64,000 nt of DNA from Microgenomates group bacterium Gr01-1014_5 (GTDB taxonomy: Bacteria > Patescibacteriota > Microgenomatia > UBA8517 > UBA10165): the NCBI GenBank assembly GCA_007376395.1, contig VMGE01000007.1:8037-72036 (forward strand), read 5' to 3'. Shown piece after piece: positions 43,237 to 61,363 of the stretch; the first letter of the stretch is position 1; every line of letters begins with the position of its first letter. The notes beneath the pieces are model-generated. The model saw only the letters and a program-made list of their open reading frames with translations, was not told where the DNA came from and did no database searches. A program made the translations under genes and the position numbers.

Positions 43237-43752
43237 ATGAATACCCTGCCTAAACAATTTGAGATTTATCTTGCCGAAACACTTGGTGTTTCTGGAAAAA
43301 CTCTGAGAAACTACAGAGCTGATCTTGGGCATTTTATCCGTTGGTCAAAGGTTCATTTGGAAAGCAAAGAAATTGCCATTAACGACTTGGAGTCTTTACT
43401 TCCTCACTTCTCCGGATATCTAGTTGCCACTTACAGAACTCATCAAGTGCATTTCGGGGTTCCGCAGTCAACAACGAATCGCAGGTTATCGACACTTCGC
43501 AATTTTGGAAAATTTTTGAGTGCTTCAGGCATCACAGAAAACAATCCCACCCAACTTATCACCAATCTCAAGGAAGAATTAACCTTGGAGCAGGAACTGG
43601 AAGGAATCGTGCGTGAATACGCTAAAACTTTGGAAAAGGAAGGCATTTCTGCGGTGACTTGCAAAAACTACTTGTCAGACATAAAACATTTCGTCAACTG
43701 GTTAAAGCTAAATCAAGAAGTCTGGATAGACAAAGCAATTCAGACAAGCTAA
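43237..43752 (+). CDS. protein made of tyrosine-recombinase N-terminal core-binding (SAM-like) domain repeats, with no catalytic domain
   Basis: FEIYLAETLGVSGKTLRNYRADLGHFIRWS and VREYAKTLEKEGISAVTCKNYLSDIKHFVNWL both fit the XerD/integrase N-terminal pattern (Y..L...G.S..T...Y..DL..F..W). A middle segment STTNRRLSTLRNFGKFLSASGITENNP fits the second half of the domain. Confidence 0.5.
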   Translation: MNTLPKQFEIYLAETLGVSGKTLRNYRADLGHFIRWSKVHLESKEIAINDLESLLPHFSGYLVATYRTHQVHFGVPQSTTNRRLSTLRNFGKFLSASGITENNPTQLITNLKEELTLEQELEGIVREYAKTLEKEGISAVTCKNYLSDIKHFVNWLKLNQEVWIDKAIQTS

Positions 43753-43757
43753 AAAGG

Positions 43758-43840
43758 CACGGGTAGCCAAAAATTACATCTGGGGGGATAATAATTTTTA
43801 GTTAATTCCGATTTAATCGGTATTAAGGCTACCCGCTCCT
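43758..43840 (+). other. structured intergenic element (nested inverted repeats) in the 155-nt gap before the giant gene
   Basis: GGGTAGCC (43758-) pairs with GGCTACCC (43828-), enclosing an inner hairpin CCGATT-TA-AATCGG. Confidence 0.3.
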
Positions 43841-43907
43841 TCGAGTATACCACCACAAACAAGAGGTTTGTAAAGAGTCACTTTGCTTCCCCCGGCTGTG
43901 CCCGAAA

Positions 43908-46900
43908 ATGAGTAACCTGCCCAACATTAGCCCTGAGCTCCTTGCTAAATATCAAAGCGAGATAGAGAACCTGCATTCTTCTGCTACAATCCGCCGCAAA
44001 ATGTCCTCCCTTGGCCGCTTTCTGCGCTGGGGAAGCGCTAACGGCCACTTCCCCTCGGCAGCTGCCGGCGTGGTTGTGGTTTCTCCTTCCACTGGCGAAA
44101 CAACCTTTACTCCCCCGATTAAAGACGTGGAAAGTTTTGTCAAAGAGGCTGGAAACCAGGCAACCCGGAAACCAGGCAACCCGACAACCGGAAAAGCTGA
44201 GTTTTGGTGGGAAAAGAATCAGGGGGTCGGAAAACTTAGCACTTCAGAGAATCAGCAGAATGGGTCTGGAAATCAGGGTGTCGGCTTTTCTGCCAAAGCC
44301 TATTTCAAGGTTGGCTTATTCACACTCACCGGCCTTACGGCGGTCGCGCTCGCTTTTTTCCTTCTCAAAGAACTTCCCAAGGGCAATAAGTCGGTATTTG
44401 TGGCGCTCTCCGGGTTTGCGCAAGGACTGCTCGGGGTGTCGGAAGGTCAGAATACCAGTGATTCCGGCGGTCAGGAAACCAGTACTTCAGGAAATCAGGA
44501 CACCGGCACTTCTGATACACCGGCTGACGGATCCACCGATACACCGACTACTGACACCCAGACCTCCGATACCCTCACCGCACGCATCCTTAATTTAATC
44601 GGTAGCGATCCCCTCATTCGAGCGCTAGGTGGTCCCCTTCTGCTAAACAGTCTTGGTATCACTCTCAAAACCGATACAGGCTCGGACGGAAACATCACCT
44701 TAGCTCCAGATGGCGAAGGTCAAGTACTCCTTCGTTCCTCTACAACAAGCAAAGATTCGTTTTCAGTGACCAACTCTAACCTGACATCTGGTAACCTGAT
44801 CTCTGGTTTAGTAGGTCATGATGGATCAAACTATAACCTTTTTTCCCTTTCTTCCGGTTCTGAACCTGTAGAACGATTTACGGTTGATTCACACGGAAAC
44901 ACAGTTATTGGAGGGACAGTACAAACCGGAGGACAACTTACCTCCCCTTCGGTCGTTACCCAGCAACTGTCGGTTGAGCGCGATATCAGTCTCACCGGCA
45001 ATCTGCTAGTCGGAGGCGTAACCCGTTTGAATTCTGCCGGCCGACTTGCTTCTATCACGGGCTTCTACCAAGATTCAGGATTATTTGAAATTGACCAAGG
45101 CTCGGCCGACTCTGCCCGGATTACCAAATATCCAACTGCCGCCCAAGGCCCGTCAACTGCCGACTCTGTCACTTACAAAGTCGATGAATCCCGCACCACC
45201 AATTCTGCCTACGACACGCTTGTCCTCTACCGCACAGGCGGAACTTCATCGGCCTACGCTTTGGATATCAGAGACGGCAACTTGCATGTTGCCGACAACT
45301 CTACTTTTGACGGAGACGTAACCGTCAGCGGTACGCTCACGGCCAACATCAACAGCAGTACCCTTACTGCCGGAGCGCTTACTGTTACCGGCAACACTAC
45401 CATGGGCGGAGATTTGGCTATCAATGGCGGGGATTTAACTTCAACAGCCTCAACCTTTAACTTTTTAACTTCAAACGCAACAACTGTCAACCTCGCAACA
45501 GCCGCAACTTCGTTATCAGTCGGGGCCTCAACCGGAACTACTACTGTCAACAACGCACTCACCGTTACCGGAGCTTTTACCGCCAACGGACCGGTTTCCT
45601 TGGGCGATGGCGACGACACAGTCACCATCAACGGCACGACTTTTACCTCAACCGAAACCTCCCCGATTACTTTTAACATCGCCGACGGTATCGTTGACGC
45701 CTGGGATTTGCAGGAAGGCACGCGGAACTATATCAATGTCAATACTACTAATACGTCTGAGGCTGTGCAATTTGGCAACGCTACCACTAATCCCAGCTTC
45801 GGATTTTTAGGAACAGGCGCGGTAACCATAGCAGGATCTGCTGAAGGAACGAACGCACTTGTGATAACCGCCGGTGACATCACGGCAACTGCCGGAGATA
45901 TTAACTTAAACTCCTCAACTCCTGACATTAAAACGAGCGCCACCGGCACTGGCTCACTCTTCAACGCAAACTTAACTACCCTCAACATTGGCGGGGCCCT
46001 AACCACTCTCAATATCGCTGATTCAACCACTACCAAAACTATTGACATCGGCGGAGTGACAGCCTCTGGAACTGACACCATAAATGTCGCGACAGAAGGA
46101 ACACTAGCCGACGTCATCACCATAGGCAACACCAACGCCTCAACGACTCTAGCCCTCACCGGCGGGGATGACTGGAATCTAGCGGCAACTGGTGTACTTA
46201 CGCTCTCTGCATCGGCAGCTCAGACAACAGCCATAGTTATCACCGATACTGACTACACCAATGCCTTATCAATTGCCGACAATAACATCACTGGCACTAC
46301 CTACTCGCTTATCGGCACTGCAGCCTCTATTGATTTCTCAGAGTTTGATGTGTCTGCCTCAACCGGAAGCGTAACAATTAATGACACAGCAGATGCCGGA
46401 GCGTTCTTGGTCGAAGGCACAAATTTAGACATCAATTCTCTTGACTTTGTTGCCGCTGGAACAATCACAGCAGCCTCCGGACAGGGTCTAACCCTGTCAA
46501 CGACAAGTGCAGATATAGCTTTGACAACCGCTACTTCTGGCAATATCAACCTAACAACTGGTGCTGCCACGGGTTTAGCCAACATTCTTACAGGAAATTT
46601 AAAGGTGGGTAATGGGACGCCAACTGTTTCTTTGGACGGAGAAGATGCCTATGTTGAAGGGACGCTTGAAGTTGATGGAGCAACGACTTTAGATGGCGCC
46701 CTCACTGTTGCAGGAACTTTAACCGCTAATGGAACAGTTGCAATTGGCGACGGCGGAGACGCGATTACATTAAGCGGAACAACAATTACTTTAACTGCCA
46801 ATACTTCAGGCAATGATATTACCTTAAACCTGACAGATAACAATGCCGATGCGTTAGATATCCAGGAAGGGGCCAACAACTACCTCAATGTTGGAACTTT

Positions 46901-49900
46901 AGACGCGGGAGCCACCATGGTGTTTGGAAACGCAACTACCAACCCAACCTTTGGCTTTCTTGGCACCGGTCTCATCACCATAGCCGGAGCAGGAGCTGAA
47001 ACCAACTCTCTCACCCTTACAACAGGAAACATTACCTTAACTGATGGAGACCTTACTCTCTCAGGTGGTGAAATCTCCGCCACGGCGGATGATACGACAG
47101 GAACTTCCTTTTCGTTTACAGGAGTCAACACCACAGGCGACACCCTTGGGGTGACCGCTAATTCTCTAAGTTCTGGAAATGCTTTAAACATTGGGGTTAA
47201 CTCAACAGGAGCAGCTTCCAATACCCAAAAAGGATTAAACATTGCGCTGTCAGGAACTAACAGCACAACAACTCAAACAACGTACGGCGCACATATCTCC
47301 AACACCCATGCTGGTACTCTATCAACCAATGTAGGCCTGTATGCCACTGCCACAGGCGGAACCACTGCAAACTATGCTGCTATATTTGAAGCTGGTAATG
47401 TTGGGATTGGCGACACCACTCCAGATGCCTTTCTGGAAGTCTTAGGAATCACGGAACAGTTAAGACTGACTTACACTGACGGGACTGTTGACTCCAGATT
47501 TACTGTTGATTCTTCAGGTAATTTAACAATTAATCAAACAGGTACGGCTGGATATGTCCGTATCGGAGACTCTGGTACTCCTGGAGTTGCAACAGGAGAT
47601 GATGATTTGTATGTTGAGGGAGATTTAGAAGCAGATGGGACATTGACTGTAGCAGGAGCAGCAACATTTGCATCTTCTGGTTCGTTTGACTCCCTCACTG
47701 TTGGTGGAGGGTATGGGGCAACTGGGGTAACAATTAGCAATGCTGGAGCAATCTCTGCTAATGGGGCTTTAATTGTTGACTCTACTTCCCTGCTTACCGG
47801 AGCAGTCACCATCACCGGTGTTGCGGAAGGAACCGCTTCTCTCACTCAAACTCTGGGAGACCATGTTATTACTGATGGAGACCTTACTCTCTCAGGTGGT
47901 GAAATCTCCGCCACGGCGGATGACGCAACAGGGACAAGCTTCTCCTTTACAGGAGTAAGTACAACTGGCGATACTCTTGGTATAACGGCTAATTCTTTAA
48001 CGTCAGGAACAGCGTTAACTATTGCTTCTACGGGAACTGCTTTCAACGGCGAACTCTTAACCTTGAGCAAGACAGGCGCTTCAGGTTCAACCGCTTTCAC
48101 TTCAGATATAGCCAATGTTACCTATTCTCAAACCTTTAATGGCGGGGTTGGCCTTGCCTCAACAGGAAATGTCCTGGATGTTTCTCGCGCGATCATCCTG
48201 GACAACGCAGGTAACACCCACACCATCTCGGGAGCTTTAGTTGCTCTGTCTTCAAATGGAACCCAAACCGCGGGAACGTTAACTGATACGGCAAATGTCC
48301 TCTCACTAACTCAGTCTTACGCTTCCGCAACAGGAGCAGTACTTTCCTTTGCTAATTCCGGAGCTGGAGTTGATATCTTGGGAACTTCTTCTACCTGGCA
48401 GGTAACCAAAGCAGGAGCTGGAACCTTTGCTTCCCTCTCAACCGGTGCTGGAGCAATCTCTGGAGGAGCAGGAAGCTTTACCACCTTAACTTCATCTGGA
48501 GCATCAACTATTGGGACTGGATCTTCTTTGACCAACACCTTTGGATCTGGGGCTTCTTCAATAAACACCATTGGAGCAGTTACTACCCCGGGAGCGCTCA
48601 CTTTGCACGGGGCAACTACCTTGGACAATACCTTTACTGTTTCAGGCAGTAACTTAACCTCACTGGGCGGAAACCTAACCGTAACAGGAACTGCCTGGAC
48701 AGCTACCCCTACTATCTCAGGACTGATTACTGCTACTTCAGGATTGACTGCAAATGGAACACTCACTGCCAATACTGATGTAGACTTTGTTTTCGCTTCT
48801 ACTGAGAACTTTACCATTGCCAATACTACAGCAGGAGCAGGAGATGTGTTGGGATTATCATTTACTTCTGCCAACTCAACAGATGGAATTGACATAGCTT
48901 TTACCGACACAGCCGACGCGGCAGCAGACACGATTTCCGGATTAAATATCTCTTTAACTTCGGCAGCTGACGCCAACGATACACTTTCTGCAATAAACAT
49001 TGCCGCATTGACCGGAAACACTGCTTTGGAATATGCGATAAACATCGGTTCTGGTTGGGATACGGATATTAACGCTACTACAAGTCTTGAAATAGGTATT
49101 GGCGGGACAAATGAATTAACTCTCACTACTACAGCTTTCTCTCCTTCAACCAGTGATGGCAGTGCTTTAGGAACCGGCTCTCTCATGTGGTCTGATTTGT
49201 TCTTGGCTAACCTCTCTGTCATCAACTTTAACAATGGAGATGTAACTATTACCCATGCGACAGACGCTCTGACTATAGCTGGCGGAGCAGTAACCATCAC
49301 AGGTGTTGCCGAAGGAACAGCTTCTCTTACCCAAACTCTTGGGGATCATGTGATTACCGATGGAGATTTGACTCTTTCTGGCGGTGAAATCTCCGCCACG
49401 GCGGACGACGCGACTGGCACCAACTTCTCTTTCACCACAGGCGGACTCACCACCGGAACAGGACTTGGAGTTAGTACGACCGCGTCTGCTTCTACTGCCT
49501 TTACTGGCGACACTCTATCTGTATCTCTATCTCAGAACTGGACAGCTGCCTCCTCCCCTACCAATACTGGAAATATTCTTGACCTTTCCCGCGCACTTAC
49601 TGTTGGTGTAGCAGGCCAAACTGTCACCCAGTCCGGAGCTTTAGCCAAGCTCTCCTCTTCCGGAACTGAAACAACAGGAGACATTGCCGATTCTTCCAAT
49701 ATCTTGCTTTTAGAACAAAATTGCGGAACCGGTGTTACTTGCTCGGGAGCAGTTTTAAAAATTACCAATTCCGGCACAGGAGCCGATATTGCTCTTAAAA
49801 ACGATGAAACAATTTCAAATTCAACTAACGGCACAATTGCCTTTGGCGCAGATAAATTAACTCTTGCAACTGCCGCAGTTGGTGGAAACCTAGTAACTGC

Positions 49901-52900
49901 AAATTATGCGGGTGCGGCAACCCAAACTTCAGCCCTTTTTGGCTTAAATTTTGACATCTCAACTAACGTTACGGTCCCTAACACTGCTTCAGGCAACCAA
50001 ACCGGGCTTTCCTTAACTGTAAAAGACGGCGGATCCTCGGCAACTGCAATAGGCGTAAATCTTGCAGGAACTTTTGACCGGGGATTAGACTTTTCAAGTT
50101 CTACTATTTCTTCCGGAGGCTCAATAATCTTTAACGACACCTCCTCAACTATTGATTTAGCTGCGGTTGCCGATAATGTTTTGGAAATTACCAATTCTTT
50201 GGGCACAACGGCCAATGACAATCTGATCACTCTGGAGATTGACGCAAACACCGATGCTTCAGACAAGATCTTATTGCGTGTTGTCTCTGAGGTTGGAGGC
50301 GTAGAACAAACTAAATTCTCGGTCGACTCAGACGGAGACGTGATAGCTGGTGGTACATTCTCTGCTGTAGAAATTAACTGTACAGACTGTTTGGATTTTA
50401 CAGACCTTGAAGACACGCTCGACCTTGACGCGGCACTGGTCCTTAACCAAACCACTAACACTTGGTCCCAAACCTTTACCGGGGACACAACTGTTGGTCT
50501 TACTTACACCGCAAACTCCCTGACAACCGGCACTGCAGTTCGCCTGACTTCCTCCGGGACTATCACTACAGGAGGAGAAATTCTGGATTTGGTTGGAAAT
50601 GGGATAACGACCGGAAATTTAGTAACCGGCAGTACAACTGCCCTTACTTCCGGCTCAGCTTTATCCCTAACTGGACCATCAGCAGCAACTGTCGGCATAA
50701 CCGGCTCTTTTGTCAATCTCACATCTGATGTGGGAGCCTCGGGCAAGGTTTTAAGTTCAACTGCAACTATTGACTCTACGGGTGTCGGGGCAGAAGCCTA
50801 CAACCTTTATGCGGCAACTACCAACTCAAATTCCACAAATACAAATACCGTCAACGGCATTTACTCTACTCTAACTGACGCGGTTGCTCTAGGAAATACT
50901 AATTACGGTATCCGCTCTGTGTTAAGTAATACCGGAGCAAATACAGCAGGAACTAAAAAAGCATATGGTCTCTATTCAAACGTAACTAACACCTCAGCAG
51001 GTATTGGAGGGTCTGCAGAGACCTATGGCGGATATTTTAGTGTTACCCCTGATACCGCAGGTTCAGCAACAGCTTATGGTTTGTACGTAACTACTACCGC
51101 GGCGGCAGATACGTCTTATGGTATTGATATAGAAGGAGCCGGTAATTTTACTTATGATATAGATCTCCAGTATGACGAGACTATTTCCAACGCCACAGAC
51201 GGCACAATTGCCTTTGGTGTTGGCGGATCGGCAGAAGTTAATTTAACAGCAACTGATCTTTCTCCCGCCGTCAGTGACGGTAATGCTCTTGGTACCACAG
51301 CCCTGATGTGGTCTGACCTCTTCTTGGCAAACCTCTCTGTCGTCAACTTTAACAATGGCGATGTGACACTAACCCATTCAACTGACCTTCTGACAATTGC
51401 AGGGGGTGGGGTAACTTTTGATGGCGCAGTCACTGCCAATACAGATGTTGATTTTGTGTTTGCCGGAAATGAGAATGCGACTATTACGAATACTACTAAT
51501 ACTCTGGGAGCTTCCGGAATGCTAGACCTTGCTTCAACTGGTTCTACCACAGATACCAGAACCCTTGATCTTTCGACAACCTTTAGCTCAACAGGAGCTA
51601 CTACGTCGTATGGGCTATACAATGCCTGGACATCAAGCGCAGTAGTAACAGGAGCGTCTGTTTCCCAAACCGCGTATGGGAGTTACAACACTGCTGCCAA
51701 AACAGGAGCAGACGATGCGACGGGAACATATACTCTCTACGGCACTTACAATACTGCTTCAAATACAGGCAGAACAGCAGTGGGAACAGTGAATACGTAT
51801 GGGGGGTACTTCTCGGCAACAGGAGATACCGCAGGAACCTCAAGTACCTACGGTCTCTACTCCATTGCCTTATCAGGAGACACGGGTTATGGATTATATA
51901 TTGGTGATGGGACTGCCACAACAGACTATGGTATCTACCAATCAGCCACAACAGATGACAACTACTTTGCAGGCAATGTCGGCATCGGCGATACCACTCC
52001 CGACGCGTTATTGGAAATAAACCAAGGCGATATGTTTTTCTATGGAAATACTCACGGAGCGGCTGCAGGAACAGACTATAACGCATTTAATAATGGTATT
52101 GCATTTATTGATGGTAATAGTGGAACGGGAGCAGGAAATTACTCCTCGCTCATAACAGGCGTCGCAAATGGAACATGGGGTGCAGATCTGCAATTTATTA
52201 CAAGAGCGGCGGCCGGCGGAGCTGCAACTGAAAAGATGAGAATAAGAGCAGATGGCAATGTTGGCATCGGTGACACAACGCCTGCGGCTCTTTTTACCGT
52301 CGGCAATACCGATCTCTTCCAAGTATCCTCAACCGGAGGCGCGGTAACTATCGCTGGCGTTGCAGAGGGCACTGCCTCTCTTACCCAAACTCTGGGAGAT
52401 CATGTAATTACCGATGGAGATTTGACTCTTTCAGGTGGAGAAATTGCCGCTACTTCAGATGATGCCACCGGAACCAATTTCAGCTTTACCACAGGCGCGC
52501 TTTCCACAGGTCTTGGAATAGGAATTGTTTCAACTTCTCAAGCCATAACTTCCGGAGGACTCTTGTCTGGCACTCTCACCTCTTCTTCTGCTACTGGTTC
52601 GTTTAGTGGTGACATTGGCCTGCTTTCAACTTCCCGAACTAACGCTACAGCTTTGCAAACACTAACTGACTCTGGGAATATATTAGACTTGGGAAGAACC
52701 ACTATTACCAACCATGCAAGCGCCACTACTAATGTCACAGGTTCAATCCTTAACATTTCCAATATCGCAACCCAAACTCTGGGAACACTTACCGACTCTG
52801 CTAACTTGGTTGTTGTTACCCAGGACGCAGATGCAACAGGAGCTCTACTCCACCTTGTTTCAAATAGAAGCTCTACCAACTACTCGCTGTTAATCGAGCA

Positions 52901-55900
52901 AACAAGCGGCGGGACAGATACGCTTTCTTTAACTGACGCAGGCAATTTGGCAATTCTTGGAGATTTAACCATTACAGGAGGCAATATCACTTCAGCCCTA
53001 ACTCTTGATTCAACTTTAACAGTTACAGGAACAACAACACTCAACGGCATAGCTAATATAGGCGACGGGGGCGACGCGATAACGCTTTCCGGAACGACAA
53101 TTACTTTAACTGCTAATGGGGTTGGAAATGATATAACCTTTAACTTGGTTGACAATAATGCCGATGCGCTGGATATTCAGGAAAGTACAAACAATTACAT
53201 TAATATTGGAACCTTAGACGCAGGCGCGGCTATGGTATTTGGAAACGCAGGCACCAATCCTACTTATTCTTTCTCGGGCAGTGGCGCGGTAACAATTACA
53301 GGTTCTGCGGAAGGCACTGCCTCTCTTACCCAAACAACTGGCGATCACGTAATCACTGACGGAGATTTAACTTTATCCAGTGGTGAAATTACAGCTACCA
53401 GCGACGATACAACAGGAACCTCTTTCTCGTTTTCCGGCACTAACCAATCAGGAGATCTCATGGGGATCACCGCAAATTCCCTCACAACAGGGACAGCCTT
53501 GTCCCTGTCCTCTACCTCTACCGCAGGAGGAGCTTCCGGTGTATCAAAAATGATCGATATAAATCGAACCGGTACAAATGCTCAACTTGCCCATACCGCT
53601 TACGGCATTTACTCTGCGGTATCCACCGGCAACGTCACCAGTGGAACTAACATCGCGGGTTATTTCTCGGCAAGTAACGCAACCACAGCCAACTATGGAT
53701 TGATTGTTGAAAATGGCAGTGTGGGTATTGGGATAACCGCACCAGCAACCACCTTAGACATAGACTCAAACAGCAATACTCAAAACTTAAGGCTAAGGGG
53801 TACTGCGGGAACAACCGAAATTGCAGATATGTTTATCAGAGCATCTGGAGCCTTGGTCTTGGGAACAGAAAACACAGGAGCGGCGCTAGCATACGTTGAA
53901 ATAGATCCTGAAGACAATGAGTACGGACTTATTTTAAGAGATTCTAATACAGGGGCAGGTACTAGCGCAACTTACGCCAACCTTTATACCACCGACGCAA
54001 CTGTTGATTACTTAAATATTGTGGTTGGCGCAACAACTGCTACAGCAGGGCTGGTAATTGATGATGATAATCAAGTCGGTATAAATACCGTAACTCCTGA
54101 ATTTCCACTTGATGTCTACACTGCTACCGATGTCTATGCAGTTGCATTCGGAGACAACACAAGTAGTAATTCCAACCTTCGAATCGCTGGTACGGCTGGT
54201 GGAGCTACTGGATATGGGTTAATTCAAATGTTCCAAGGCAACACAACGGGGGGAAACTTGGTACTCCAAAGTGCTGCTGGAAGTGTCGGTATCGGCACAA
54301 CTGCTCCGGATGCGGCACTGGAAATAAACCATGCAACTGGGGATTCTTTAAGATTGACATACAATGATTCAAACGGAACGGCTGCCAATTACACTGACTT
54401 CTCTCTCTCCTCCACCGGAGCATTGACTTTGACAGGTAGCGCGGCGACTCTTGGAGCCAGCGCAACAGCAGAAAAAACTTTCTTCACCTTAACTCCTGGG
54501 ACTATTACACTCACTGCTCCAACTGCCGTAACCTCCCTCATGGAAACGGCAGTTATTACCGGATCAACTATTGCCGCTTCTGCGGCAACCACCGTTAATA
54601 ACGCGGCAGGTCTTTCCATCTCTGCTCCCATAGATAGTACCAATGCTACCCTCACCACTTCCTCTGCTCTAAGAATTTTAGATATCACTTCAGGAGCAGG
54701 AACATTAACAACTCAATATGGAATTTATATAGATGCCCCAACCGGCGGAGCCACCTCAAATATTGGCCTCTACAACGCAGGGACGACCACACTGGTGGGA
54801 GCGGTTACCAATGCTGGTGGAATCTCCGGAGGAGCAGGTAGCTTTACAACTCTTGCTGCTTCTTCAACTTTAGCCGTAACCGGAGATACCACTCTAACAG
54901 GAGATTTAGCAGTCAATGGCGGAGATTTAACAACAACGGCCACAACATTTAATTTATTAAACGCAATGACCGGCACGCTCAATTTCGGGGGTGGAGTTGA
55001 CACTGTAAATATTGGCGCGGCGGGCGGAGCGGCGACAACTATAAACGTTGTAGGTGCGGTGGCGTTTAGTGGGTCAACAGGTGTTGGTCTTTCTATCGCA
55101 ACTGGTGGCCTCACCGTCACTGCTGGCGGGGCAACAATTACGGCTGGAAATTTGGGAATTGGAGTAGCAGTAAACACAGCTATTAGCGCCCGAGCGAATT
55201 CAACAGCCCTTCTCACTGCCGACCAGATTGGTTTTTACTCCGACCCGATTTTCACAACTGCGGCAACAACAAAAGGAGCTGGTTTTCTCTCATCCTTTAG
55301 AACAGCAGGTTCTACAACCATGACTGATGGGTATGGATATCTCGTAGAAAGCCCCGCTATTGGAGCTCTTTCTGCTATCACCAACTTCTATGGCGTTTAT
55401 GTAAAGAATCAAAACAGTGCCCTGATAACCAATGCTTATGGTGTCTACATTGCAGCACAAACAACGGCCGTCACCACCAACATCGGCCTCTACAATGCAG
55501 GGACAACGACTTTGGTGGGGGCGACCTACATCAACGACACATCAAATGCCAACTCCACCACAGGCCTCACCATCAACCAAGGAGCAAGTGATGATCAAAT
55601 TTTTGCACTGAAATCATCTGATGTTCTTCATGGAATGACAGCCGTTGTGGAAACGGATACGTTCGCAGCATTCTATAAGACAAGCGCTGGTGGCGGTGGA
55701 CTAGAAATAGATTCAACAACTGACGCAGATACCGAGGCCAATCGACCGGCATTTCTTGTACAAGCAACGTCGGGTGTGGCCGCAGATACTACCAAAACAA
55801 CCTCTGGACGTGGAGTCTTTGAAATCCGATCTGGTCTAGTTTCCGGAACTGGTCGCGCTGATGTCGGAACGAATGGCAGCCTTATGGCTGTACTCAATAA

Positions 55901-58900
55901 CGCCACAGCTCGATTCATCATCGATGCAGAAGGAGATACCTGGCAAGATGGAGATGTTTCTTTAAATGGCGGAGATGTTACCACTGCCGCCACAACCGCC
56001 ACTCTCTTTAACACCACTGCAACTACCCTTTCTCTGGGAGGCGGGGCAACAACTGCTTTGAACTTGGGTAATGGTACCTCTTCTTACACTGCTATCAATC
56101 TCGGCGCAGGAGCAGCAGCAGTCAATGGAATTAACATTGGCGGAACAGGAGCAAATGTTATTGCTATTGGCAATACCCAAACCGCTGGATCTGTGGCTAT
56201 TGGCGCAGCCATGACAGGAGGAACTATCACTATTGGCGGAACAGGATTACAAACAGGAACGATAGCTTTGGGAACAGGCACAGGAGCGCAAGCAATTAAT
56301 TTAGGAACAGGGGGTACAGGAACAAAAACAGTTATCTTGGGGGGATTAGATGGTAACTCTGTCACCACCATAAATTCCGGCGCGGGAGCGATAAATATAG
56401 GCACAGCTATTGGCAAAACTATAAATATTGGTAATATAGGAGTCACTCTTAACGTAACTTCCGGCACGGGCAGTCAAACCTATGCTTCATCAGTTGCCAC
56501 CACCGCTACTACATCTTCTGCCTTTGTCTTTACCGGTAATTCTCTGACCACTGGAACAGGATCATACTTTAATTCATCCTCTCTGACTACAGGAAAATTA
56601 GTTGATATCAATACAGGTTCTGCCAACACCTTCACCACAGGCACATTATTAAATATAGCTTCCACCTCCACTGCTCTGACTTCTGGCAAGTTCTTGAACA
56701 TCTCCAACGGCTCAGACATCTTTACGGTAACCAACACCGACTTTACCACTTCCCTCCCTGCCAACTTCACCTCAGCAGGAGATGTGGGGATAGCATATGA
56801 CATCAATTTCACTAATCCGACGGCTTCATACATCAAATCGCTTGCACCATTATATATACAGGCAGGAGAGAGTTTTGCTTCCCAGGACTTGACTTTGAAA
56901 ACATATAACCAGGGGTCAGTCGTAATTGATAGTTCGGTAACAACAGGAACTGGGGTAAATATGACAAACATCGGCTTAACTACTGGCACTGGTATGCTTC
57001 TTGCACATACCACTTCAGTAATTGCTGCCGGTGGATCACTTGCAAGAATATCATCAACTGGAATTGATACTTCTACCACAACTGGAGTTCTTCTTGATCT
57101 CTCCTCTACTGCCTCTACTGCAGGCACACAATTCCTGCAAACATACTCTGGACTAACTACAGGAATTGGTCAATCAATAGTGGCGAATGCACTGACTACA
57201 GGTGAGGCTTTCATCATTCCTCATACCACCTCGGTTATCGCTGATGGCGGATCATTGGCTAGAATTACCTCTTCCTCGGTGGATACAGGGGGTGCAACAA
57301 ATGGAGTACTGCTTGACTTAGCTTCTACCGGGTCAACGGCGGGTACTCAATTCCTGCAGACCTATTCAGCTTTAACTACGGGAATTGGACAGTCTATAGT
57401 AACTAACGCTCTGGCTGGCGGATCAGCGCTTAGTCTTGCCTCCTCCTCTACAGCCTTTACCGGAGATATGATAGCTGTAACGCTCTCGGGATCAAACGCT
57501 GCAAATACAGGAAATCTTCTCGACCTCACCAACTCCGGCACGTCAAACACCAACACAACTGCATATATCAAACACTATGCGACCGGCACAAACAACCTCG
57601 CGTTTAGAATTGATGATGTATCAGGAGACACCACCCCATTTGCCGTTGACGGAACAGGAAGTGTGGGTATTGGAACCACTGCTCCCCAAGGTAACCTAGA
57701 AATATATAACAACACAAATGCCGCCACCACTCCGCTATTTTCTATCCGTTCGGATTTTAACATAATCGGTAACTACGGTATGATCCGTTTTGGAGACTAT
57801 ACCCAAACTACCGCATATCAAAAAGGTGCGATTATCTATGAAAGTGTTTCTGGTGCTGCCAGAGGCAAGTTCCATATTGCCCTAGAAAATACTGATGGCG
57901 CGGGAACCGTGGCTCTCACTGATGCCAGACTTACTGTTTTATCAAGCGGGGCTATAGGTATTAACGACGTAACTCCCGATGCCTTCCTGGAAGTCTTGGG
58001 AACTACTGAACAATTAAGACTGACCTACACCGATGGTACTGTTGATACCAGATTCACGGTGGGATCAGGAGGAGACTTAACCATTGATGCATCAACAGAT
58101 GGATCAGGAAGTGAGACGCTGACCTTGACTGGATTTACTACCCTGACTGCCACTGGCGTTGCAGGTTCCTTTGACTCCCTCACTGTTGGCGGGGGGTATG
58201 GGAGTACGGGAGTAACAATTAGCAATGCGGGGGCGATATCTGCTGATGGTGATGCGATAATCGCCGGAGGTCAGACAACTGTTGGCGCAGGTGGAGCTGG
58301 AGCTATTGGTGTATCTCTTGGAACAACCAGCCTAACTGCCGCGCAATCCTCTGTCCTTAATCTTCAAGGATATGGTCAAGAGAATGAATGGGTTGGTATG
58401 GGTATGTATTACAGCGGGTCTGCTTGGACTGCAGCTGCTATCAGCGCTTTCCAACTCCAACACTCAGGATCTAACTTTCAAATATATGGCGATGCAAGTT
58501 TGACCGTTGGCGGTACTTACACTCCCACACTCAGATTTACAATAGCCGCGGCAACAGGAAATATAACCTCCACAGGAGACCTAGCGCTAAACGGCGGAGA
58601 CTTAACCACCACCGCCACCACTGCCACTTTGTTTGATACTACCGCCACTACCCTTTCTCTGGGAGGAGCTGCGACCACACTATTAAACTTGGGTAATGGT
58701 ACCGGTAACTATACGGCAATCAATTTGGGTTCTAGTACGGGAACCCACACTATCAACATCGCAGGAACAGGAGCAACTGGAATTGATACTATTAATATCG
58801 GTACTGGCGGCACAGCAGCCGATACTATTAACATAGGAAACGGGGCAACCGCCAATACCATCGCTATTGGATCAAGCTCCTCTACCACAGTCTCAATTAC

Positions 58901-60830
58901 AGATAACAACTGGAGTGTTACCGCGGCAGGAGTTGCAACTTTTGCTTCGTGTTCGGGATGCGGCAGTAGCGGACCTTGGAATAACATAACAGATCCAACC
59001 GGCACACAAACACTCGCTTTCGGTGATGCAGAGCTTACTGCGTGGACAACCGCTTCTGACACCGAAACATTCTTGACCATGACTGCCAGCGCATTAACCA
59101 CTGGCAAGATTTTGGATATTGCGACAAGCAACAATACCTTTACCACCGGAACACTTGTTAACATAGCTTCCACCTCCACCGCTCTGACCAGCGGTAAGTT
59201 CCTGAACATCAACAATGGCTCGGACATCTTCTCTGTTTCCAACACCGACTTTACTACCGCGCTTCCTGCCAACTTCACCGCTTCAGGCGACGTATCTATC
59301 GCTTACGACATCAACTTCACCAACCCAACAGCGTCTTATATCAAAAGTTCTGCTCCCCTCTCTATAGAAGCGGGAGAAACCTTTAATTCATCCAATTTGA
59401 CATTGAAAACGTACAATTCCGGACTTTTGAATGTGGACGCGGCAGGCGGATCACTCTTTACCAAAAGCGCGGGAACAGTTGCCTCGATTAACCGCACCAC
59501 CAGCGACGGTACTATTATAGATTGGCAACGGGACGGCGCATCAGTGGGTGTAATCTCTGTTGCTAGTGGTGTTCTTACTTATGGAACATTTACCGGTTCC
59601 CACTACGCGTGGACTGACGAAACAATTGAAAAAGGAATGCTGGTGAGCTTAACTGGAAACAATAGAAGCCTGAATAACAACAGTAATTCCGAAATACTCT
59701 ATGGCATTACGAAAACCCCTACTGCAAACGATTCAAAAATACTAGGTTCTTACCTAAGTATTCTTGAATCAGACCAACCCGCTTCAAATACCAATCCGCA
59801 CCTGGTTATGGCTGCCGGAAACGGCGATATGTGGGTAGCTGATTATGGGTCAAATCTGGAAAATGGCGACTACCTCATTTCTTCGGGCACGGCTGGACAC
59901 GCTATGAAGGACGACGGAACCTACAAACCGGCCTACATCATCGCCAGAGTCGCCCAGCCGGTTGACTGGAATGAGATTTCAGAAACAATTGACGACAATG
60001 GCACGCCAAGAAAACACGCCAGAATTTCCATTACTTTTGAAATGTACAAAGAAAATAACCTCACCGAGCTTTTTGCTTCTCTTGGTAGTTCGGTCGAGCA
60101 ATTACTCGCGCTCACCAGCACGATAACCAAAGACCTCGCGGGCAGAATACACATCCCGTCATTGATAGCTAACCTCATCCAAACCGACACGCTTATTTCA
60201 CCGGTTGTTGAAACAACCGAAATCAAGACCGGCGGCGCCGACTTAACTGTAAATTTGGCCAATCCAGCTTCTAACCTCCAACCTCCAACCTCTGCCTTTG
60301 GCAAGCTTCTTGTCAAAGGCAACCTCGAAGTTACCGGCGACGCCACTATTTCCGGAACCCTCTATGCAGATAAGATCAAAGCAAATCAAATCGAAGGGCT
60401 AACGGGTACGTTTAGCGAGCTCATCGCCTCACAGTCTGCAGTCCAAAATCTGGCGTTCGAGAGGGCTACCCAAACCACCCAATCGGTAGTTGAGCGTATA
60501 AGGGGACGCCTTGAACAACTGGAAGGCTCGGTTGCCGCCTCAGCCGCCAGCAGTCAGGCCAGACAACAAATTAAGGATATGCTAACAGAAACTGCTCAAA
60601 CTTCCCCGCTCTTGTCCTTTAGCCCCGGCACTTGGGACACTGCCGCGGCTACTGATTCGGCAAATTTGGCTTCCCTTGATACCCTTGGTACTCTTGATAC
60701 ACTTGCCACTCTCAACCTTGCCGGTGACTTTAACGTCTACGGCTCAACCCGCCTCTCAAACACTTTTGTCTATGACGGCGCAGTTACTATCGCGAACACG
60801 GCAACTAACGAATCTCTTTACATCCCTTGA
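43908..60830 (+). CDS. giant (5640-aa) membrane-anchored surface repeat protein: N-terminal SAM-like segment, one TM helix, then a Thr/Gly/Ser/Ala/Asn-rich beta-helix/fibre-like region with long internal repeats and a C-terminal coiled coil
   Basis: Single uninterrupted ORF. TM helix YFKVGLFTLTGLTAVALAFFLL at ~aa 150-172. Recurring modules (IGDGGDAITLSGTTITLTAN...DIQEG.NNY.N.GTLDAGA.MVFGNATTNPTFGF, ITGVAEGTASLTQTLGDHVITDGDLTLSGGEISATADDATGT.FSFT, GNVGIGDTTPDAFLEVLG...LRLTYTDGTVD). GC content is visibly higher than the flanking DNA. Confidence 0.8.
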   Translation: MSNLPNISPELLAKYQSEIENLHSSATIRRKMSSLGRFLRWGSANGHFPSAAAGVVVVSPSTGETTFTPPIKDVESFVKEAGNQATRKPGNPTTGKAEFWWEKNQGVGKLSTSENQQNGSGNQGVGFSAKAYFKVGLFTLTGLTAVALAFFLLKELPKGNKSVFVALSGFAQGLLGVSEGQNTSDSGGQETSTSGNQDTGTSDTPADGSTDTPTTDTQTSDTLTARILNLIGSDPLIRALGGPLLLNSLGITLKTDTGSDGNITLAPDGEGQVLLRSSTTSKDSFSVTNSNLTSGNLISGLVGHDGSNYNLFSLSSGSEPVERFTVDSHGNTVIGGTVQTGGQLTSPSVVTQQLSVERDISLTGNLLVGGVTRLNSAGRLASITGFYQDSGLFEIDQGSADSARITKYPTAAQGPSTADSVTYKVDESRTTNSAYDTLVLYRTGGTSSAYALDIRDGNLHVADNSTFDGDVTVSGTLTANINSSTLTAGALTVTGNTTMGGDLAINGGDLTSTASTFNFLTSNATTVNLATAATSLSVGASTGTTTVNNALTVTGAFTANGPVSLGDGDDTVTINGTTFTSTETSPITFNIADGIVDAWDLQEGTRNYINVNTTNTSEAVQFGNATTNPSFGFLGTGAVTIAGSAEGTNALVITAGDITATAGDINLNSSTPDIKTSATGTGSLFNANLTTLNIGGALTTLNIADSTTTKTIDIGGVTASGTDTINVATEGTLADVITIGNTNASTTLALTGGDDWNLAATGVLTLSASAAQTTAIVITDTDYTNALSIADNNITGTTYSLIGTAASIDFSEFDVSASTGSVTINDTADAGAFLVEGTNLDINSLDFVAAGTITAASGQGLTLSTTSADIALTTATSGNINLTTGAATGLANILTGNLKVGNGTPTVSLDGEDAYVEGTLEVDGATTLDGALTVAGTLTANGTVAIGDGGDAITLSGTTITLTANTSGNDITLNLTDNNADALDIQEGANNYLNVGTLDAGATMVFGNATTNPTFGFLGTGLITIAGAGAETNSLTLTTGNITLTDGDLTLSGGEISATADDTTGTSFSFTGVNTTGDTLGVTANSLSSGNALNIGVNSTGAASNTQKGLNIALSGTNSTTTQTTYGAHISNTHAGTLSTNVGLYATATGGTTANYAAIFEAGNVGIGDTTPDAFLEVLGITEQLRLTYTDGTVDSRFTVDSSGNLTINQTGTAGYVRIGDSGTPGVATGDDDLYVEGDLEADGTLTVAGAATFASSGSFDSLTVGGGYGATGVTISNAGAISANGALIVDSTSLLTGAVTITGVAEGTASLTQTLGDHVITDGDLTLSGGEISATADDATGTSFSFTGVSTTGDTLGITANSLTSGTALTIASTGTAFNGELLTLSKTGASGSTAFTSDIANVTYSQTFNGGVGLASTGNVLDVSRAIILDNAGNTHTISGALVALSSNGTQTAGTLTDTANVLSLTQSYASATGAVLSFANSGAGVDILGTSSTWQVTKAGAGTFASLSTGAGAISGGAGSFTTLTSSGASTIGTGSSLTNTFGSGASSINTIGAVTTPGALTLHGATTLDNTFTVSGSNLTSLGGNLTVTGTAWTATPTISGLITATSGLTANGTLTANTDVDFVFASTENFTIANTTAGAGDVLGLSFTSANSTDGIDIAFTDTADAAADTISGLNISLTSAADANDTLSAINIAALTGNTALEYAINIGSGWDTDINATTSLEIGIGGTNELTLTTTAFSPSTSDGSALGTGSLMWSDLFLANLSVINFNNGDVTITHATDALTIAGGAVTITGVAEGTASLTQTLGDHVITDGDLTLSGGEISATADDATGTNFSFTTGGLTTGTGLGVSTTASASTAFTGDTLSVSLSQNWTAASSPTNTGNILDLSRALTVGVAGQTVTQSGALAKLSSSGTETTGDIADSSNILLLEQNCGTGVTCSGAVLKITNSGTGADIALKNDETISNSTNGTIAFGADKLTLATAAVGGNLVTANYAGAATQTSALFGLNFDISTNVTVPNTASGNQTGLSLTVKDGGSSATAIGVNLAGTFDRGLDFSSSTISSGGSIIFNDTSSTIDLAAVADNVLEITNSLGTTANDNLITLEIDANTDASDKILLRVVSEVGGVEQTKFSVDSDGDVIAGGTFSAVEINCTDCLDFTDLEDTLDLDAALVLNQTTNTWSQTFTGDTTVGLTYTANSLTTGTAVRLTSSGTITTGGEILDLVGNGITTGNLVTGSTTALTSGSALSLTGPSAATVGITGSFVNLTSDVGASGKVLSSTATIDSTGVGAEAYNLYAATTNSNSTNTNTVNGIYSTLTDAVALGNTNYGIRSVLSNTGANTAGTKKAYGLYSNVTNTSAGIGGSAETYGGYFSVTPDTAGSATAYGLYVTTTAAADTSYGIDIEGAGNFTYDIDLQYDETISNATDGTIAFGVGGSAEVNLTATDLSPAVSDGNALGTTALMWSDLFLANLSVVNFNNGDVTLTHSTDLLTIAGGGVTFDGAVTANTDVDFVFAGNENATITNTTNTLGASGMLDLASTGSTTDTRTLDLSTTFSSTGATTSYGLYNAWTSSAVVTGASVSQTAYGSYNTAAKTGADDATGTYTLYGTYNTASNTGRTAVGTVNTYGGYFSATGDTAGTSSTYGLYSIALSGDTGYGLYIGDGTATTDYGIYQSATTDDNYFAGNVGIGDTTPDALLEINQGDMFFYGNTHGAAAGTDYNAFNNGIAFIDGNSGTGAGNYSSLITGVANGTWGADLQFITRAAAGGAATEKMRIRADGNVGIGDTTPAALFTVGNTDLFQVSSTGGAVTIAGVAEGTASLTQTLGDHVITDGDLTLSGGEIAATSDDATGTNFSFTTGALSTGLGIGIVSTSQAITSGGLLSGTLTSSSATGSFSGDIGLLSTSRTNATALQTLTDSGNILDLGRTTITNHASATTNVTGSILNISNIATQTLGTLTDSANLVVVTQDADATGALLHLVSNRSSTNYSLLIEQTSGGTDTLSLTDAGNLAILGDLTITGGNITSALTLDSTLTVTGTTTLNGIANIGDGGDAITLSGTTITLTANGVGNDITFNLVDNNADALDIQESTNNYINIGTLDAGAAMVFGNAGTNPTYSFSGSGAVTITGSAEGTASLTQTTGDHVITDGDLTLSSGEITATSDDTTGTSFSFSGTNQSGDLMGITANSLTTGTALSLSSTSTAGGASGVSKMIDINRTGTNAQLAHTAYGIYSAVSTGNVTSGTNIAGYFSASNATTANYGLIVENGSVGIGITAPATTLDIDSNSNTQNLRLRGTAGTTEIADMFIRASGALVLGTENTGAALAYVEIDPEDNEYGLILRDSNTGAGTSATYANLYTTDATVDYLNIVVGATTATAGLVIDDDNQVGINTVTPEFPLDVYTATDVYAVAFGDNTSSNSNLRIAGTAGGATGYGLIQMFQGNTTGGNLVLQSAAGSVGIGTTAPDAALEINHATGDSLRLTYNDSNGTAANYTDFSLSSTGALTLTGSAATLGASATAEKTFFTLTPGTITLTAPTAVTSLMETAVITGSTIAASAATTVNNAAGLSISAPIDSTNATLTTSSALRILDITSGAGTLTTQYGIYIDAPTGGATSNIGLYNAGTTTLVGAVTNAGGISGGAGSFTTLAASSTLAVTGDTTLTGDLAVNGGDLTTTATTFNLLNAMTGTLNFGGGVDTVNIGAAGGAATTINVVGAVAFSGSTGVGLSIATGGLTVTAGGATITAGNLGIGVAVNTAISARANSTALLTADQIGFYSDPIFTTAATTKGAGFLSSFRTAGSTTMTDGYGYLVESPAIGALSAITNFYGVYVKNQNSALITNAYGVYIAAQTTAVTTNIGLYNAGTTTLVGATYINDTSNANSTTGLTINQGASDDQIFALKSSDVLHGMTAVVETDTFAAFYKTSAGGGGLEIDSTTDADTEANRPAFLVQATSGVAADTTKTTSGRGVFEIRSGLVSGTGRADVGTNGSLMAVLNNATARFIIDAEGDTWQDGDVSLNGGDVTTAATTATLFNTTATTLSLGGGATTALNLGNGTSSYTAINLGAGAAAVNGINIGGTGANVIAIGNTQTAGSVAIGAAMTGGTITIGGTGLQTGTIALGTGTGAQAINLGTGGTGTKTVILGGLDGNSVTTINSGAGAINIGTAIGKTINIGNIGVTLNVTSGTGSQTYASSVATTATTSSAFVFTGNSLTTGTGSYFNSSSLTTGKLVDINTGSANTFTTGTLLNIASTSTALTSGKFLNISNGSDIFTVTNTDFTTSLPANFTSAGDVGIAYDINFTNPTASYIKSLAPLYIQAGESFASQDLTLKTYNQGSVVIDSSVTTGTGVNMTNIGLTTGTGMLLAHTTSVIAAGGSLARISSTGIDTSTTTGVLLDLSSTASTAGTQFLQTYSGLTTGIGQSIVANALTTGEAFIIPHTTSVIADGGSLARITSSSVDTGGATNGVLLDLASTGSTAGTQFLQTYSALTTGIGQSIVTNALAGGSALSLASSSTAFTGDMIAVTLSGSNAANTGNLLDLTNSGTSNTNTTAYIKHYATGTNNLAFRIDDVSGDTTPFAVDGTGSVGIGTTAPQGNLEIYNNTNAATTPLFSIRSDFNIIGNYGMIRFGDYTQTTAYQKGAIIYESVSGAARGKFHIALENTDGAGTVALTDARLTVLSSGAIGINDVTPDAFLEVLGTTEQLRLTYTDGTVDTRFTVGSGGDLTIDASTDGSGSETLTLTGFTTLTATGVAGSFDSLTVGGGYGSTGVTISNAGAISADGDAIIAGGQTTVGAGGAGAIGVSLGTTSLTAAQSSVLNLQGYGQENEWVGMGMYYSGSAWTAAAISAFQLQHSGSNFQIYGDASLTVGGTYTPTLRFTIAAATGNITSTGDLALNGGDLTTTATTATLFDTTATTLSLGGAATTLLNLGNGTGNYTAINLGSSTGTHTINIAGTGATGIDTINIGTGGTAADTINIGNGATANTIAIGSSSSTTVSITDNNWSVTAAGVATFASCSGCGSSGPWNNITDPTGTQTLAFGDAELTAWTTASDTETFLTMTASALTTGKILDIATSNNTFTTGTLVNIASTSTALTSGKFLNINNGSDIFSVSNTDFTTALPANFTASGDVSIAYDINFTNPTASYIKSSAPLSIEAGETFNSSNLTLKTYNSGLLNVDAAGGSLFTKSAGTVASINRTTSDGTIIDWQRDGASVGVISVASGVLTYGTFTGSHYAWTDETIEKGMLVSLTGNNRSLNNNSNSEILYGITKTPTANDSKILGSYLSILESDQPASNTNPHLVMAAGNGDMWVADYGSNLENGDYLISSGTAGHAMKDDGTYKPAYIIARVAQPVDWNEISETIDDNGTPRKHARISITFEMYKENNLTELFASLGSSVEQLLALTSTITKDLAGRIHIPSLIANLIQTDTLISPVVETTEIKTGGADLTVNLANPASNLQPPTSAFGKLLVKGNLEVTGDATISGTLYADKIKANQIEGLTGTFSELIASQSAVQNLAFERATQTTQSVVERIRGRLEQLEGSVAASAASSQARQQIKDMLTETAQTSPLLSFSPGTWDTAAATDSANLASLDTLGTLDTLATLNLAGDFNVYGSTRLSNTFVYDGAVTIANTATNESLYIP
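47041..47092 (+). repeat. 52-bp segment identical to 47871-47922 inside the giant gene (one of many internal repeats; related copies near 49330, 52390 and 53340)
   Basis: ctgatggagaccttactctctcaggtggtgaaatctccgccacggcggatga occurs twice verbatim. Confidence 0.8.
56630..56900 (+). repeat. ~270-bp internal repeat of the giant gene (paralogous copy at ~59140-59410, roughly 90% nucleotide identity)
   Basis: Encodes FTTGTLLNIASTSTALTSGKFLNISNGSDIFTVTNTDFTTSLPANFTSAGDVGIAYDINFTNPTASYIKS; the paralog encodes FTTGTLVNIASTSTALTSGKFLNINNGSDIFSVSNTDFTTALPANFTASGDVSIAYDINFTNPTASYIKS. Confidence 0.75.
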
Positions 60831-61363
60831 TTATCAATGGTGATGGTTTAGTACTAATTAACAATTTGACAGTTAACGGAACGCTCGCCGTCTCAACAAT
60901 TACGCCAAACGGCGGTGATTTGACCTTAGATCTTTCCCCCCAAAACCCTCAACTCCCTCAATCCGCCTTCGGCAGCCTTTTGGTAAAAGGCGCCGACGGC
61001 TCGACCGTCGCCTCAATTGACGCCTCGGGCTCGGCGACTCTGCGGAAGCTAATCATCGCCGCTCCCTCATTACCCTCAACTCCCTCAGCTCAAATCGCAG
61101 GCGAAGTCGCGAGCAACGCCACCGCCGGCCATGCAATTATCCCGGCTGGATACGCAGATTTGAAGATTTACAATAAGAATGTCACCAGCGATACTTTAGT
61201 GTATGTTACCGCCACTTCCCAAACCGGAAACCAGGTTATCTATGTCAAGAACAAAACAGCTCATACCGGAATAGTTGACGGTTATTTTACAGTTTCAATT
61301 GACCTTCCCTACGGCTCAGATATCGAATTTAACTGGTGGATAATAGATTTGAAGGAAAATTAG
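60827..61363 (+). CDS. 178-aa ORF with no ATG, in the -1 frame abutting the giant gene stop; homologous to the giant C-terminal region (possible continuation or TTG-initiated paralog)
   Basis: No Met codon anywhere in the ORF (TTG at 60827). NGGDLTLDLSPQNPQLPQSAFGSLLVKG parallels GADLTVNLANPASNLQPPTSAFGKLLVKG near the giant C-terminus. Confidence 0.4.
   Translation: MIINGDGLVLINNLTVNGTLAVSTITPNGGDLTLDLSPQNPQLPQSAFGSLLVKGADGSTVASIDASGSATLRKLIIAAPSLPSTPSAQIAGEVASNATAGHAIIPAGYADLKIYNKNVTSDTLVYVTATSQTGNQVIYVKNKTAHTGIVDGYFTVSIDLPYGSDIEFNWWIIDLKEN

Follow-up and report, generated by a model that had tools for sequence, protein, structure and literature searches.

A candidate giant surface fibre with a split SAM-like foot and phage-fibre-like distal parts in a Microgenomates bacterium

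What does a single, uninterrupted open reading frame (ORF) of 5640 codons encode in an ultrasmall groundwater bacterium of the Microgenomates group? We addressed this question for a 64,000-nt window of the GenBank metagenome-assembled genome (MAG) 'Microgenomates group bacterium Gr01-1014_5', and all coordinates given here are window positions. A first-pass annotation of this DNA had described the ORF at 43908-60830 on the forward strand as a gene for a membrane-anchored, modular, fibre-like protein with recurring motif units. The ORF is present as described and contains no interruption. We conclude that the locus probably encodes a giant surface fibre that is anchored in the membrane at its N-terminus and belongs to a large, group-specific family. 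The analyses presented below directly support the structure of the gene, its place in the family, its conserved pairing and fusion with a neighbouring gene, the order of the domains and the resemblances in fold.

Judged by its sequence, the protein is a member of a large, undescribed family of Microgenomates/Candidate Phyla Radiation (CPR) bacteria with conserved ends and a shuffled middle. The first 440 residues of the fibre identified four homologues. We built a profile (A1) from the fibre and its homologues and searched it exhaustively, resulting in 1411 cluster representatives at E ≤ 1e-3, 175 of them at E ≤ 1e-30. The best 150 matches have a median length of 2160 aa and a maximum of 5818 aa; 80 are at least 2000 aa and four at least 5000 aa long. 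In BLAST comparisons with family members, the N-terminal ~480 aa and the C-terminal ~400 aa are conserved, and module matches between them are scattered and differ in order. Invariant A1 columns present in the window protein include an N-terminal half SAM-like domain (M-x-x-L-x-x-ISP...RK.SSL..F..W), and the motif ITG[YF][YE]Q[DT][SG]G of a membrane-proximal base domain follows the single transmembrane helix. Since the window protein was itself a seed of A1, the independent evidence for the base domain is its identity of 35-58% across 11 related loci. The family's genome loci come from Blackburnbacteria and Woesebacteria, and two members carry the automatic NCBI names 'tail fiber domain-containing protein' and 'phage integrase SAM-like domain-containing protein'. 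A homologue of 761 aa, P0088, reproduces the whole arrangement in miniature: its SAM-like N-terminus leads through a transmembrane helix to the base domain, after which come Peptidase_S74, helices and a tail with NWWIID at its end.

Membrane anchoring was borne out by a Kyte-Doolittle scan of the complete 5843-aa protein (reconstructed below), which found one hydrophobic segment, aa 133-156, with a score of 2.2. The residues before it form a foot that is predicted to be cytoplasmic and that is tied to a second gene. Directly upstream of the fibre gene lies a small ORF whose 171-aa product is exactly GenBank TSC88692.1 and contains SAM-like (core-binding) domains of the tyrosine-recombinase type. 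A SAM-like ORF occupies this position in all 11 related loci, and thus in 12 of 12 including the window, and P0141 and P0201 are fusions of it with the fibre. One Pfam SAM-like match in P0141 (residues 130-201, profile positions 3-81) bridges the fusion point. When the upstream protein and the fibre N-terminus from the window were concatenated, they aligned colinearly with P0141 residues 21-202 (E 2e-25), and the SAM-like match in the concatenate again reached across the junction. The fusions, the colinear alignment and the junction-spanning match together suggest that the second SAM-like domain is split between two gene products. Many invariant family columns fall within the fibre's share of it, aa 1-46, and the small upstream protein most likely docks on the cytoplasmic end of the fibre. 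Neither the upstream ORF nor the fibre N-terminus contained a recombinase catalytic domain (PF00589, with its RHRY residues); both gave SAM-like matches only. The missing catalytic domain sets the small protein apart from tyrosine recombinases such as XerC, XerD or integrases.

Several features of the DNA around this gene pair were also seen. The spacer between the two genes (43753-43907, 155 nt) can form a long hairpin, GGGTAGCC...GGCTACCC, with a minimum free energy of -44.5 kcal/mol (z -2.3); at other loci the spacers are much shorter, or the genes overlap. Upstream of the small SAM-like gene, at 43090-43119, there is a strong promoter-like site (11 of 12 matches). In Woesebacteria RBG_13_46_13 (L016 2512-3138), a SAM-like ORF and a fibre N-terminus stand in-frame and 18 nt apart, and this may be another natural fusion.

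Beyond the base domain, the bulk of the protein is low-charge repeat material. Threonine (17%), glycine (13%), alanine (12%) and serine (10%) dominate the composition of the 5640-aa protein. Comparing the protein with itself revealed recurring segments of ~100-317 aa at 30-84% identity, the largest pair being aa 903-1219 with aa 3002-3332, and seven strict copies of a G-x-VGIG/TTP motif, in support of the modular, fibre-like character proposed earlier. Searches of Pfam, PHROGs and NCBIfam with the whole protein and with pieces of it gave no significant match, and none was found to Ig-like, cadherin, FN3, RTX or YadA repeats in Pfam or NCBIfam over the whole protein. The PDB likewise yielded no sequence match for 4900 aa of the body or for the C-terminal 640 aa. 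One G-x-VGIG module had two PHROG tail-fibre matches, both weak (E 4.6e-4 and 4.2e-3), and a word-indexed search with it returned 7 short hypothetical proteins, mostly from Microgenomates. No match was obtained by tblastn of 1000 aa of modules and the distal domain against 50,697 phage genomes. Elsewhere within the window we found no paralogues of the conserved fibre ends.

The distal part of the protein is more telling. Its C-terminal 540 aa identified 86 homologues with ~50% identity over ~215 aa; the domain in common, aa 5191-5384, contains the motif FTGSHY, after which we name it. The homologues are fibre-like proteins of 300-950 aa from Zixibacteria, Bacteroidota, Patescibacteria and others, some with collagen, YadA-head or UspA1 repeats, and the two genomic contexts checked were chromosomal and not phage. 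The domain has many invariant or near-invariant polar residues, including S61, H62, E92, D151, S155, S156 and H161 in alignment A2. It had no sequence match in Pfam, PHROG or PDB, and a scan of IMG/VR for the distal domain found no relative. In an AlphaFold2 (AF2) model, a beta domain precedes a long helix; the mean predicted local distance difference test (pLDDT) score is 80, and the core scores above 90. Searching BFVD with this model by Foldseek gave 38 matches at E ≤ 1e-3 (best 1.4e-11) to large viral proteins, including annotated tail, tail-fibre and pre-neck appendage proteins. Among solved structures, the best fold match was to capsid decoration proteins of the lambda gpD/TW1 gp57 type, which form trimers; this match is marginal (E 1e-3, target TM-score ~0.5), with ~10% sequence identity and an entirely different biological setting.

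The position of the FTGSHY domain within the family suggests what it replaces. Among 151 family sequences, 20 have an S74-like domain and 7 an FTGSHY-like domain, none has both, and either domain lies ~300-500 residues from the C-terminus. Relatives carry a true Peptidase_S74 (Pfam E 6e-14 to 1e-16) followed by helices. The window protein had no match to Pfam S74 (PF13884), even at E ≤ 10 on the C-terminal 540 aa, nor to an S74 profile hidden Markov model derived from the family, which matched 20 relatives at a cut-off of E ≤ 1e-5. Hence, the intramolecular-chaperone tail suspected in the first-pass annotation is right for this slot in the family, where relatives have Peptidase_S74, and is not found in this protein. 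Its comparison with phage tail fibres is supported by the BFVD matches, by the fold of the P0088 tip described below and by Peptidase_S74 in relatives.

Two other assemblies, found via neighbour proteins, indicated where the gene ends: an 80.7-kb ENA contig (ERZ27284378) and Logan contigs of SRR8863434. Both contain 76 extra bases between window positions 60824 and 60825, and apart from these 76 nt the compared parts of both are base-for-base identical to the window. With the 76 nt inserted, the reading frame passes through a 178-aa ORF, and the lengths agree (17,456 + 76 = 17,532 nt). The product at this locus in the ENA contig has 5843 aa and an end corresponding to window position 61363, and no separate 178-aa product is on record. 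The 5640-aa ORF therefore most likely lacks 203 residues of the gene product, and its C-terminal ~150 aa are then not the end of the protein. Family members align as far as residue 5842 of the reconstructed protein, and the end motif WW(I/V)(I/V) occurs in 100 of 151 family representatives. The C-terminal tail with (F/Y)(N/D)WW(I/V)(I/V) is present in this locus too, inside the 178-aa ORF in the window and contiguous with the rest in the ENA and Logan assemblies.

The window differs from two ENA assemblies in a similar manner at other sites, with 0-3 substitutions and several indels over 21 kb. In argS (minus strand; ORFs 35144-36589 and 34731-35156), 16 nt, TGGTGAGATAAATCAA on the plus strand of the alignment, are missing at ~35190, and ArgRS is split into 481 + 141 aa in the window and is a single product of 587 or 624 aa in the two ENA assemblies. 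Compared with the ENA contigs, ~159 nt are missing from mreB at ~29560-29564, which shortens MreB from 334 to 281 aa, and ~121 nt from the gene of a PEGA-domain protein at ~30217-30223 (405 to 379 aa). At 36722-36751, within an ORF (36537-36926) made of repeats of DKRFDEKLLGQDSRFDKKLSDQ, the window has one 66-nt tandem copy more than the ENA contig. That essential genes carry deletions in the absence of point differences points to local errors of assembly in the MAG from which the window comes. The stop codon in the window most likely results from such an error, the loss of the 76 nt, and the 5640-aa and 178-aa ORFs are most likely one gene of 5843 aa at 43908-61363. A false gene split of this kind matters for annotating or counting 'giant proteins' from this MAG assembly.

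Between the FTGSHY domain and the junction, the protein has helical, coiled-coil-like segments. The heptad-like stretch noticed earlier (aa 5500-5540, nt 60405-60527) lies within them, and the region of P0088 homologous to aa 5385-5639 is predicted to be helical. The tail tip of P0088 was modelled with pLDDT 94-97. In Foldseek searches the P0088 model matched the receptor-binding domain of the Pam1 tailspike (7eea) locally, over 71 residues with a root-mean-square deviation of 2.3 Å, and further matches were a Klebsiella phage depolymerase, the R2 pyocin fibre, the Sf6 tailspike and an H-type lectin. An internal duplication was seen near the C-terminus, where 60222-60368 and 60899-61060 (...GGADLTVNLANPASNLQPPTSAFGKLLVKG... 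and ...GGDLTLDLSPQNPQLPQSAFGSLLVKG...) are 39% identical; the duplicated element is also found in the small homologues P0088 and P0089. The features of the locus are collected in Table 1.

Table 1. Features of the fibre locus, in window positions
Feature	Position	Strand	Basis or remark
Upstream partner, 171 aa, one and a half SAM-like (core-binding) domains, tyrosine-recombinase type	43237-43752	+	PF02899, E 2.5e-16
Giant ORF as found in the window	43908-60830	+	5640 aa; most likely codons 1-5639 of a gene with 5843 codons
Second half of SAM-like domain, aa 1-46, predicted cytoplasmic	43908-44045	+	PF02899 profile positions 39-78
Single transmembrane segment, putative signal anchor, aa 133-156	44304-44375	+	Kyte-Doolittle scan
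Conserved membrane-proximal base domain, aa ~240-480; motifs DGNIT..PDG and GRLASITGFYQDSGLFEIDQ	44625-45347	+	Alignment A1, profile search
Variable body, aa ~481-5190; shuffled recurring Thr/Gly/Ala/Ser-rich modules including 7 G-x-VGIG/TTP units	45348-59477	+	Self-comparison
Longest exact internal DNA repeat, 53 nt	47040-47092	+	Second copy at 47871-47923
'FTGSHY' beta domain, then long helix, aa 5191-5384; in the slot of the relatives' Peptidase_S74	59478-60059	+	86 homologues, AF2 model
Helical, coiled-coil-like and beta segments, aa 5385-5639	60060-60824	+	AF2 model helices, family conservation
Junction with 76 nt missing; creates TGA at 60828-60830	60824-60825		Two other assemblies
178-aa ORF, most likely the real C-terminal tail, ends EFNWWIID; last ~80 aa (~61109-61360) predicted tip beta-sandwich	60827-61363	+	ENA gene call, family motif

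We propose the following picture of the fibre, in which trimer state, topology, binding function and any self-cleavage are what we infer from these data. The first ~46 residues would stay in the cytoplasm and complete a SAM-like domain with the C-terminal part of the upstream 171-aa protein. The helix at aa 133-156 would span the membrane with the N-terminus inside, placing the conserved base domain next to the membrane, and ~4700 residues of shuffled beta-rich modules would form the shaft. Near the far end, the FTGSHY domain and its helix would form a knob in the slot of the self-cleaving trimerisation chaperone Peptidase_S74, and the fibre would end with coiled-coil-like segments and a small beta-sandwich tip of tailspike or lectin type. 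By analogy with S74-bearing phage fibres and trimeric decoration proteins, the fibre may be a homotrimer in which the distal cassette nucleates folding. The long tail fibre of phage T4 has a length of about 0.06 nm per residue; at this rate, ~5,600 extracellular residues would, as a rough estimate, extend roughly 300 nm, comparable to the cell itself. At its far end the fibre would contact another cell or surface, and diversity among lineages would come from the variable shaft and the exchangeable distal cassettes. Such contact would be the most economical function, and a cell-contact role is plausible, the organism being a member of the CPR.

Several points weigh against this picture. For the shaft modules, neither curated families nor solved structures gave a significant match. 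On its own, the N-terminus of the window fibre matches PF02899 weakly (E 0.053, profile positions 39-78); the N-terminus of the homologue P0088 matches it with E 2.9e-5. The fold of the tip comes from a model of P0088, not of the window protein; apart from its helices and tip, this monomer AF2 model is poor (mean pLDDT 63.6), and the tailspike and lectin matches are assigned to the tip by inference, because the aligned query range was unreported. Moreover, the 76-nt difference may be a real minor variant instead of an artefact.

The proposed fibre has parallels in known systems and differs from each of them. It resembles phage tail fibres and tailspikes with Peptidase_S74, such as the K1F endosialidase and T5 pb1, in being a long, repetitive fibre of beta-rich modules; the tip beta-sandwich is akin to C-terminal domains of tailspikes, and the knob is akin to viral tail and fibre folds. 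Unlike these phage proteins, the window protein has no S74 match, its N-terminus would sit in the cell membrane and not in a virion, it is 4-5 times longer and lacks a phage gene context, and the S74/FTGSHY cassette of its family is internal, with ~300-500 residues beyond it. Giant adhesins, including RTX/LapA/SiiE proteins, Giant1-5 of Apilactobacillus and surface proteins of Absconditicoccaceae, are likewise thousands of residues long, repetitive, extracellular and proposed to act in cell contact. In place of their Ig-like, cadherin, FN3 or RTX repeats, signal peptide, type I secretion signal or LPXTG motif, the window fibre has an N-terminal signal anchor, a cytoplasmic domain of recombinase type and phage-type distal cassettes. 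With trimeric autotransporter adhesins such as YadA and UspA1 it shares the logic of a fibre with coiled coils, and some FTGSHY-domain proteins of other phyla also carry YadA-head or UspA1 repeats. However, the window fibre has neither the C-terminal beta-barrel anchor nor YadA repeats, and its anchor is at the opposite end. In published descriptions, the cell envelopes of CPR bacteria have no outer membrane.

Our literature search found no description of this fibre family, only general statements on large CPR surface proteins and giant genes. Very large CPR surface proteins have already been proposed as candidates for host recognition (PMC13059738), and giant surface fibres and adhesins are as a kind already known. 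What is new is a family in which a cytoplasmic module of recombinase origin is combined with an ectodomain resembling phage fibres.

A bolder version of the fibre hypothesis, which we regard as possible and rather doubtful, holds that the FTGSHY domain and its helix are a new trimerising, possibly self-cleaving chaperone cassette and, separately, that the split SAM-like module links the fibre to DNA or to a regulatory partner. The chaperone part is suggested by the shared slot with S74, by the two domains never occurring together, by the spread of FTGSHY over fibre proteins of several phyla and by the conserved Ser, His, Asp and Glu residues. In the model, the conserved G-S of the FTGSHY domain falls in a turn of low confidence that connects two strands, a placement like that of SEA-type cleavage sites. 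If true, the coupling of a cell-surface fibre to DNA or a regulatory partner would not have been described previously.

A giant repetitive protein could also serve the envelope itself. As a long spacer, sheath or S-layer-associated fibre, it would shape or protect the surface and would not bind a host. The low charge and the Thr/Gly/Ala/Ser-rich repeats of the bulk would suit such a structural element, as would the fact that the membrane-adjacent base domain is the best conserved extracellular part, and the fibre has no known ligand. Yet the far end bears the cassettes of receptor-binding fibres (an S74 or FTGSHY knob and a tailspike- or lectin-like tip), and the middle is highly variable among lineages, which better fits an interaction surface under diversifying pressure than a fixed scaffold. 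We therefore consider a purely structural role unlikely.

We think it very unlikely that the protein is a membrane-tethered DNA-binding or signalling device, in which the fibre senses contact and the cytoplasmic SAM-like module relays it to DNA. In recombinases the SAM-like domain is a DNA-binding fold, and the cytoplasmic end of the fibre has conserved it together with a dedicated partner protein. The eukaryotic membrane-bound transcription factor MYRF, which contains an S74/ICA domain, is a precedent for the joining of phage-fibre parts and DNA-binding domains (PMC3742443, PMC3742440); like the window fibre, it has a DNA-binding-type domain, a membrane span and parts derived from phage fibres within a single chain. 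In MYRF, however, S74 adjoins the DNA-binding domain, both being on one side of the membrane, and frees that domain, whereas in the window fibre order and topology differ, with the S74/FTGSHY cassette of the family more than 5000 residues away and across the membrane. For the window fibre, a mechanism of release is not apparent.

The internal DNA repeats raised the question of whether the gene is a contingency locus, with repeats driving length or phase variation and the 76-nt frameshifting deletion as one switch. Many dispersed repeats, a 53-nt exact repeat and a frameshifting indel between the window and the other assemblies would be expected of such a locus. The repeats had been described as long, near-identical (85-100% nucleotide identity) substrates for recombination, a description that our analysis does not uphold. 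At the coordinates given, the four listed pairs were only 19-28% identical, which is a random level, and required shifts of +1, +5, -2 and -6 nt; one of them is the 53-nt exact match, and the remaining three are 73-77% identical after shifting. All blastn self-matches of the gene DNA have 68-87% identity, which makes poor substrates for recombination, and the gene contains no sizeable tandem arrays, TRF (a tandem-repeat search) giving just two tiny repeats. In addition, the 76-nt segment has no proper flanking direct repeat, the total gene length is the same in the independent ENA assembly, and the small deletions in argS and mreB of the same assembly cannot be phase switches. A switching function thus appears highly improbable.

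The gene had further been singled out by its GC-richer composition and by long open frames on the opposite strand. Its GC content is indeed elevated, at 0.48 as compared with 0.41 in the remaining window, and the excess resides at codon position 2 (0.55 in the gene versus 0.36-0.44 in five neighbouring genes). GC3 is 0.405 and falls within the range of the five neighbours (0.34-0.44), so the excess stems from the protein's richness in Thr, Gly, Ala and Ser and does not point to foreign DNA; we rejected a foreign origin on grounds of GC. There are nine antisense ORFs of at least 150 aa, the longest of 342 aa. Codon-shuffled versions of the gene had a longest antisense ORF of 235 ± 51 aa and 4.2 ± 1.7 ORFs of at least 150 aa. 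The antisense ORFs are hence real as frames and largely an effect of codon composition rather than a mark of distinctness, and antisense genes were rejected because shuffles yield similar ORFs.

That the gene is a tail-fibre gene of a phage, prophage or tailocin in the chromosome is extremely unlikely. One relative is named as a tail fibre protein by NCBI, relatives contain S74 and the folds match viral fibres. However, no phage genes are nearby, the neighbours encoding LeuRS, ComEA, ComEC and four-helix-bundle proteins. A membrane anchor and a cytoplasmic domain stand at the N-terminus, tblastn of the distal domain and 1000 aa of modules against 50,697 phage genomes and the IMG/VR scan for the distal domain returned no relative, and the gene pair is conserved across Microgenomates genomes.

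The context of the locus is chromosomal, with LeuRS, ComEA, ComEC and ArgRS encoded upstream of the fibre gene. Downstream, 61370-63270 encodes a four-helix-bundle protein with a TIGR04258 suffix domain and then the paralogous small ORFs 61902-62501 and 62788-63270. A 97-aa ORF follows this pair, and its N-terminus, WFDDSWSYRQRVDITNSG, resembles by eye a DUF2341-type start. Beyond the end of the window, the ENA contig (L003 10001-20556) encodes a 1925-aa DUF2341/LamG protein, GIY-YIG genes and another 23S_rRNA_IVP protein. This downstream stretch may be a second surface-protein region with mobile-element-like small genes.

To our knowledge, little is understood, except in Saccharibacteria, about how CPR/Patescibacteria recognise other cells and stay attached to them. 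The fibre described here belongs to a family of more than 1,400 sequence clusters, many of which are among the largest genes of these tiny genomes. Its proposed architecture is clear and open to testing: a foot in the cytoplasm, paired with a partner protein, would lead through a membrane anchor to a variable shaft, and the distal end would carry phage-like cassettes that can be exchanged and a lectin-like tip. Imaging, binding assays and comparisons of host range can be aimed at these concrete parts.

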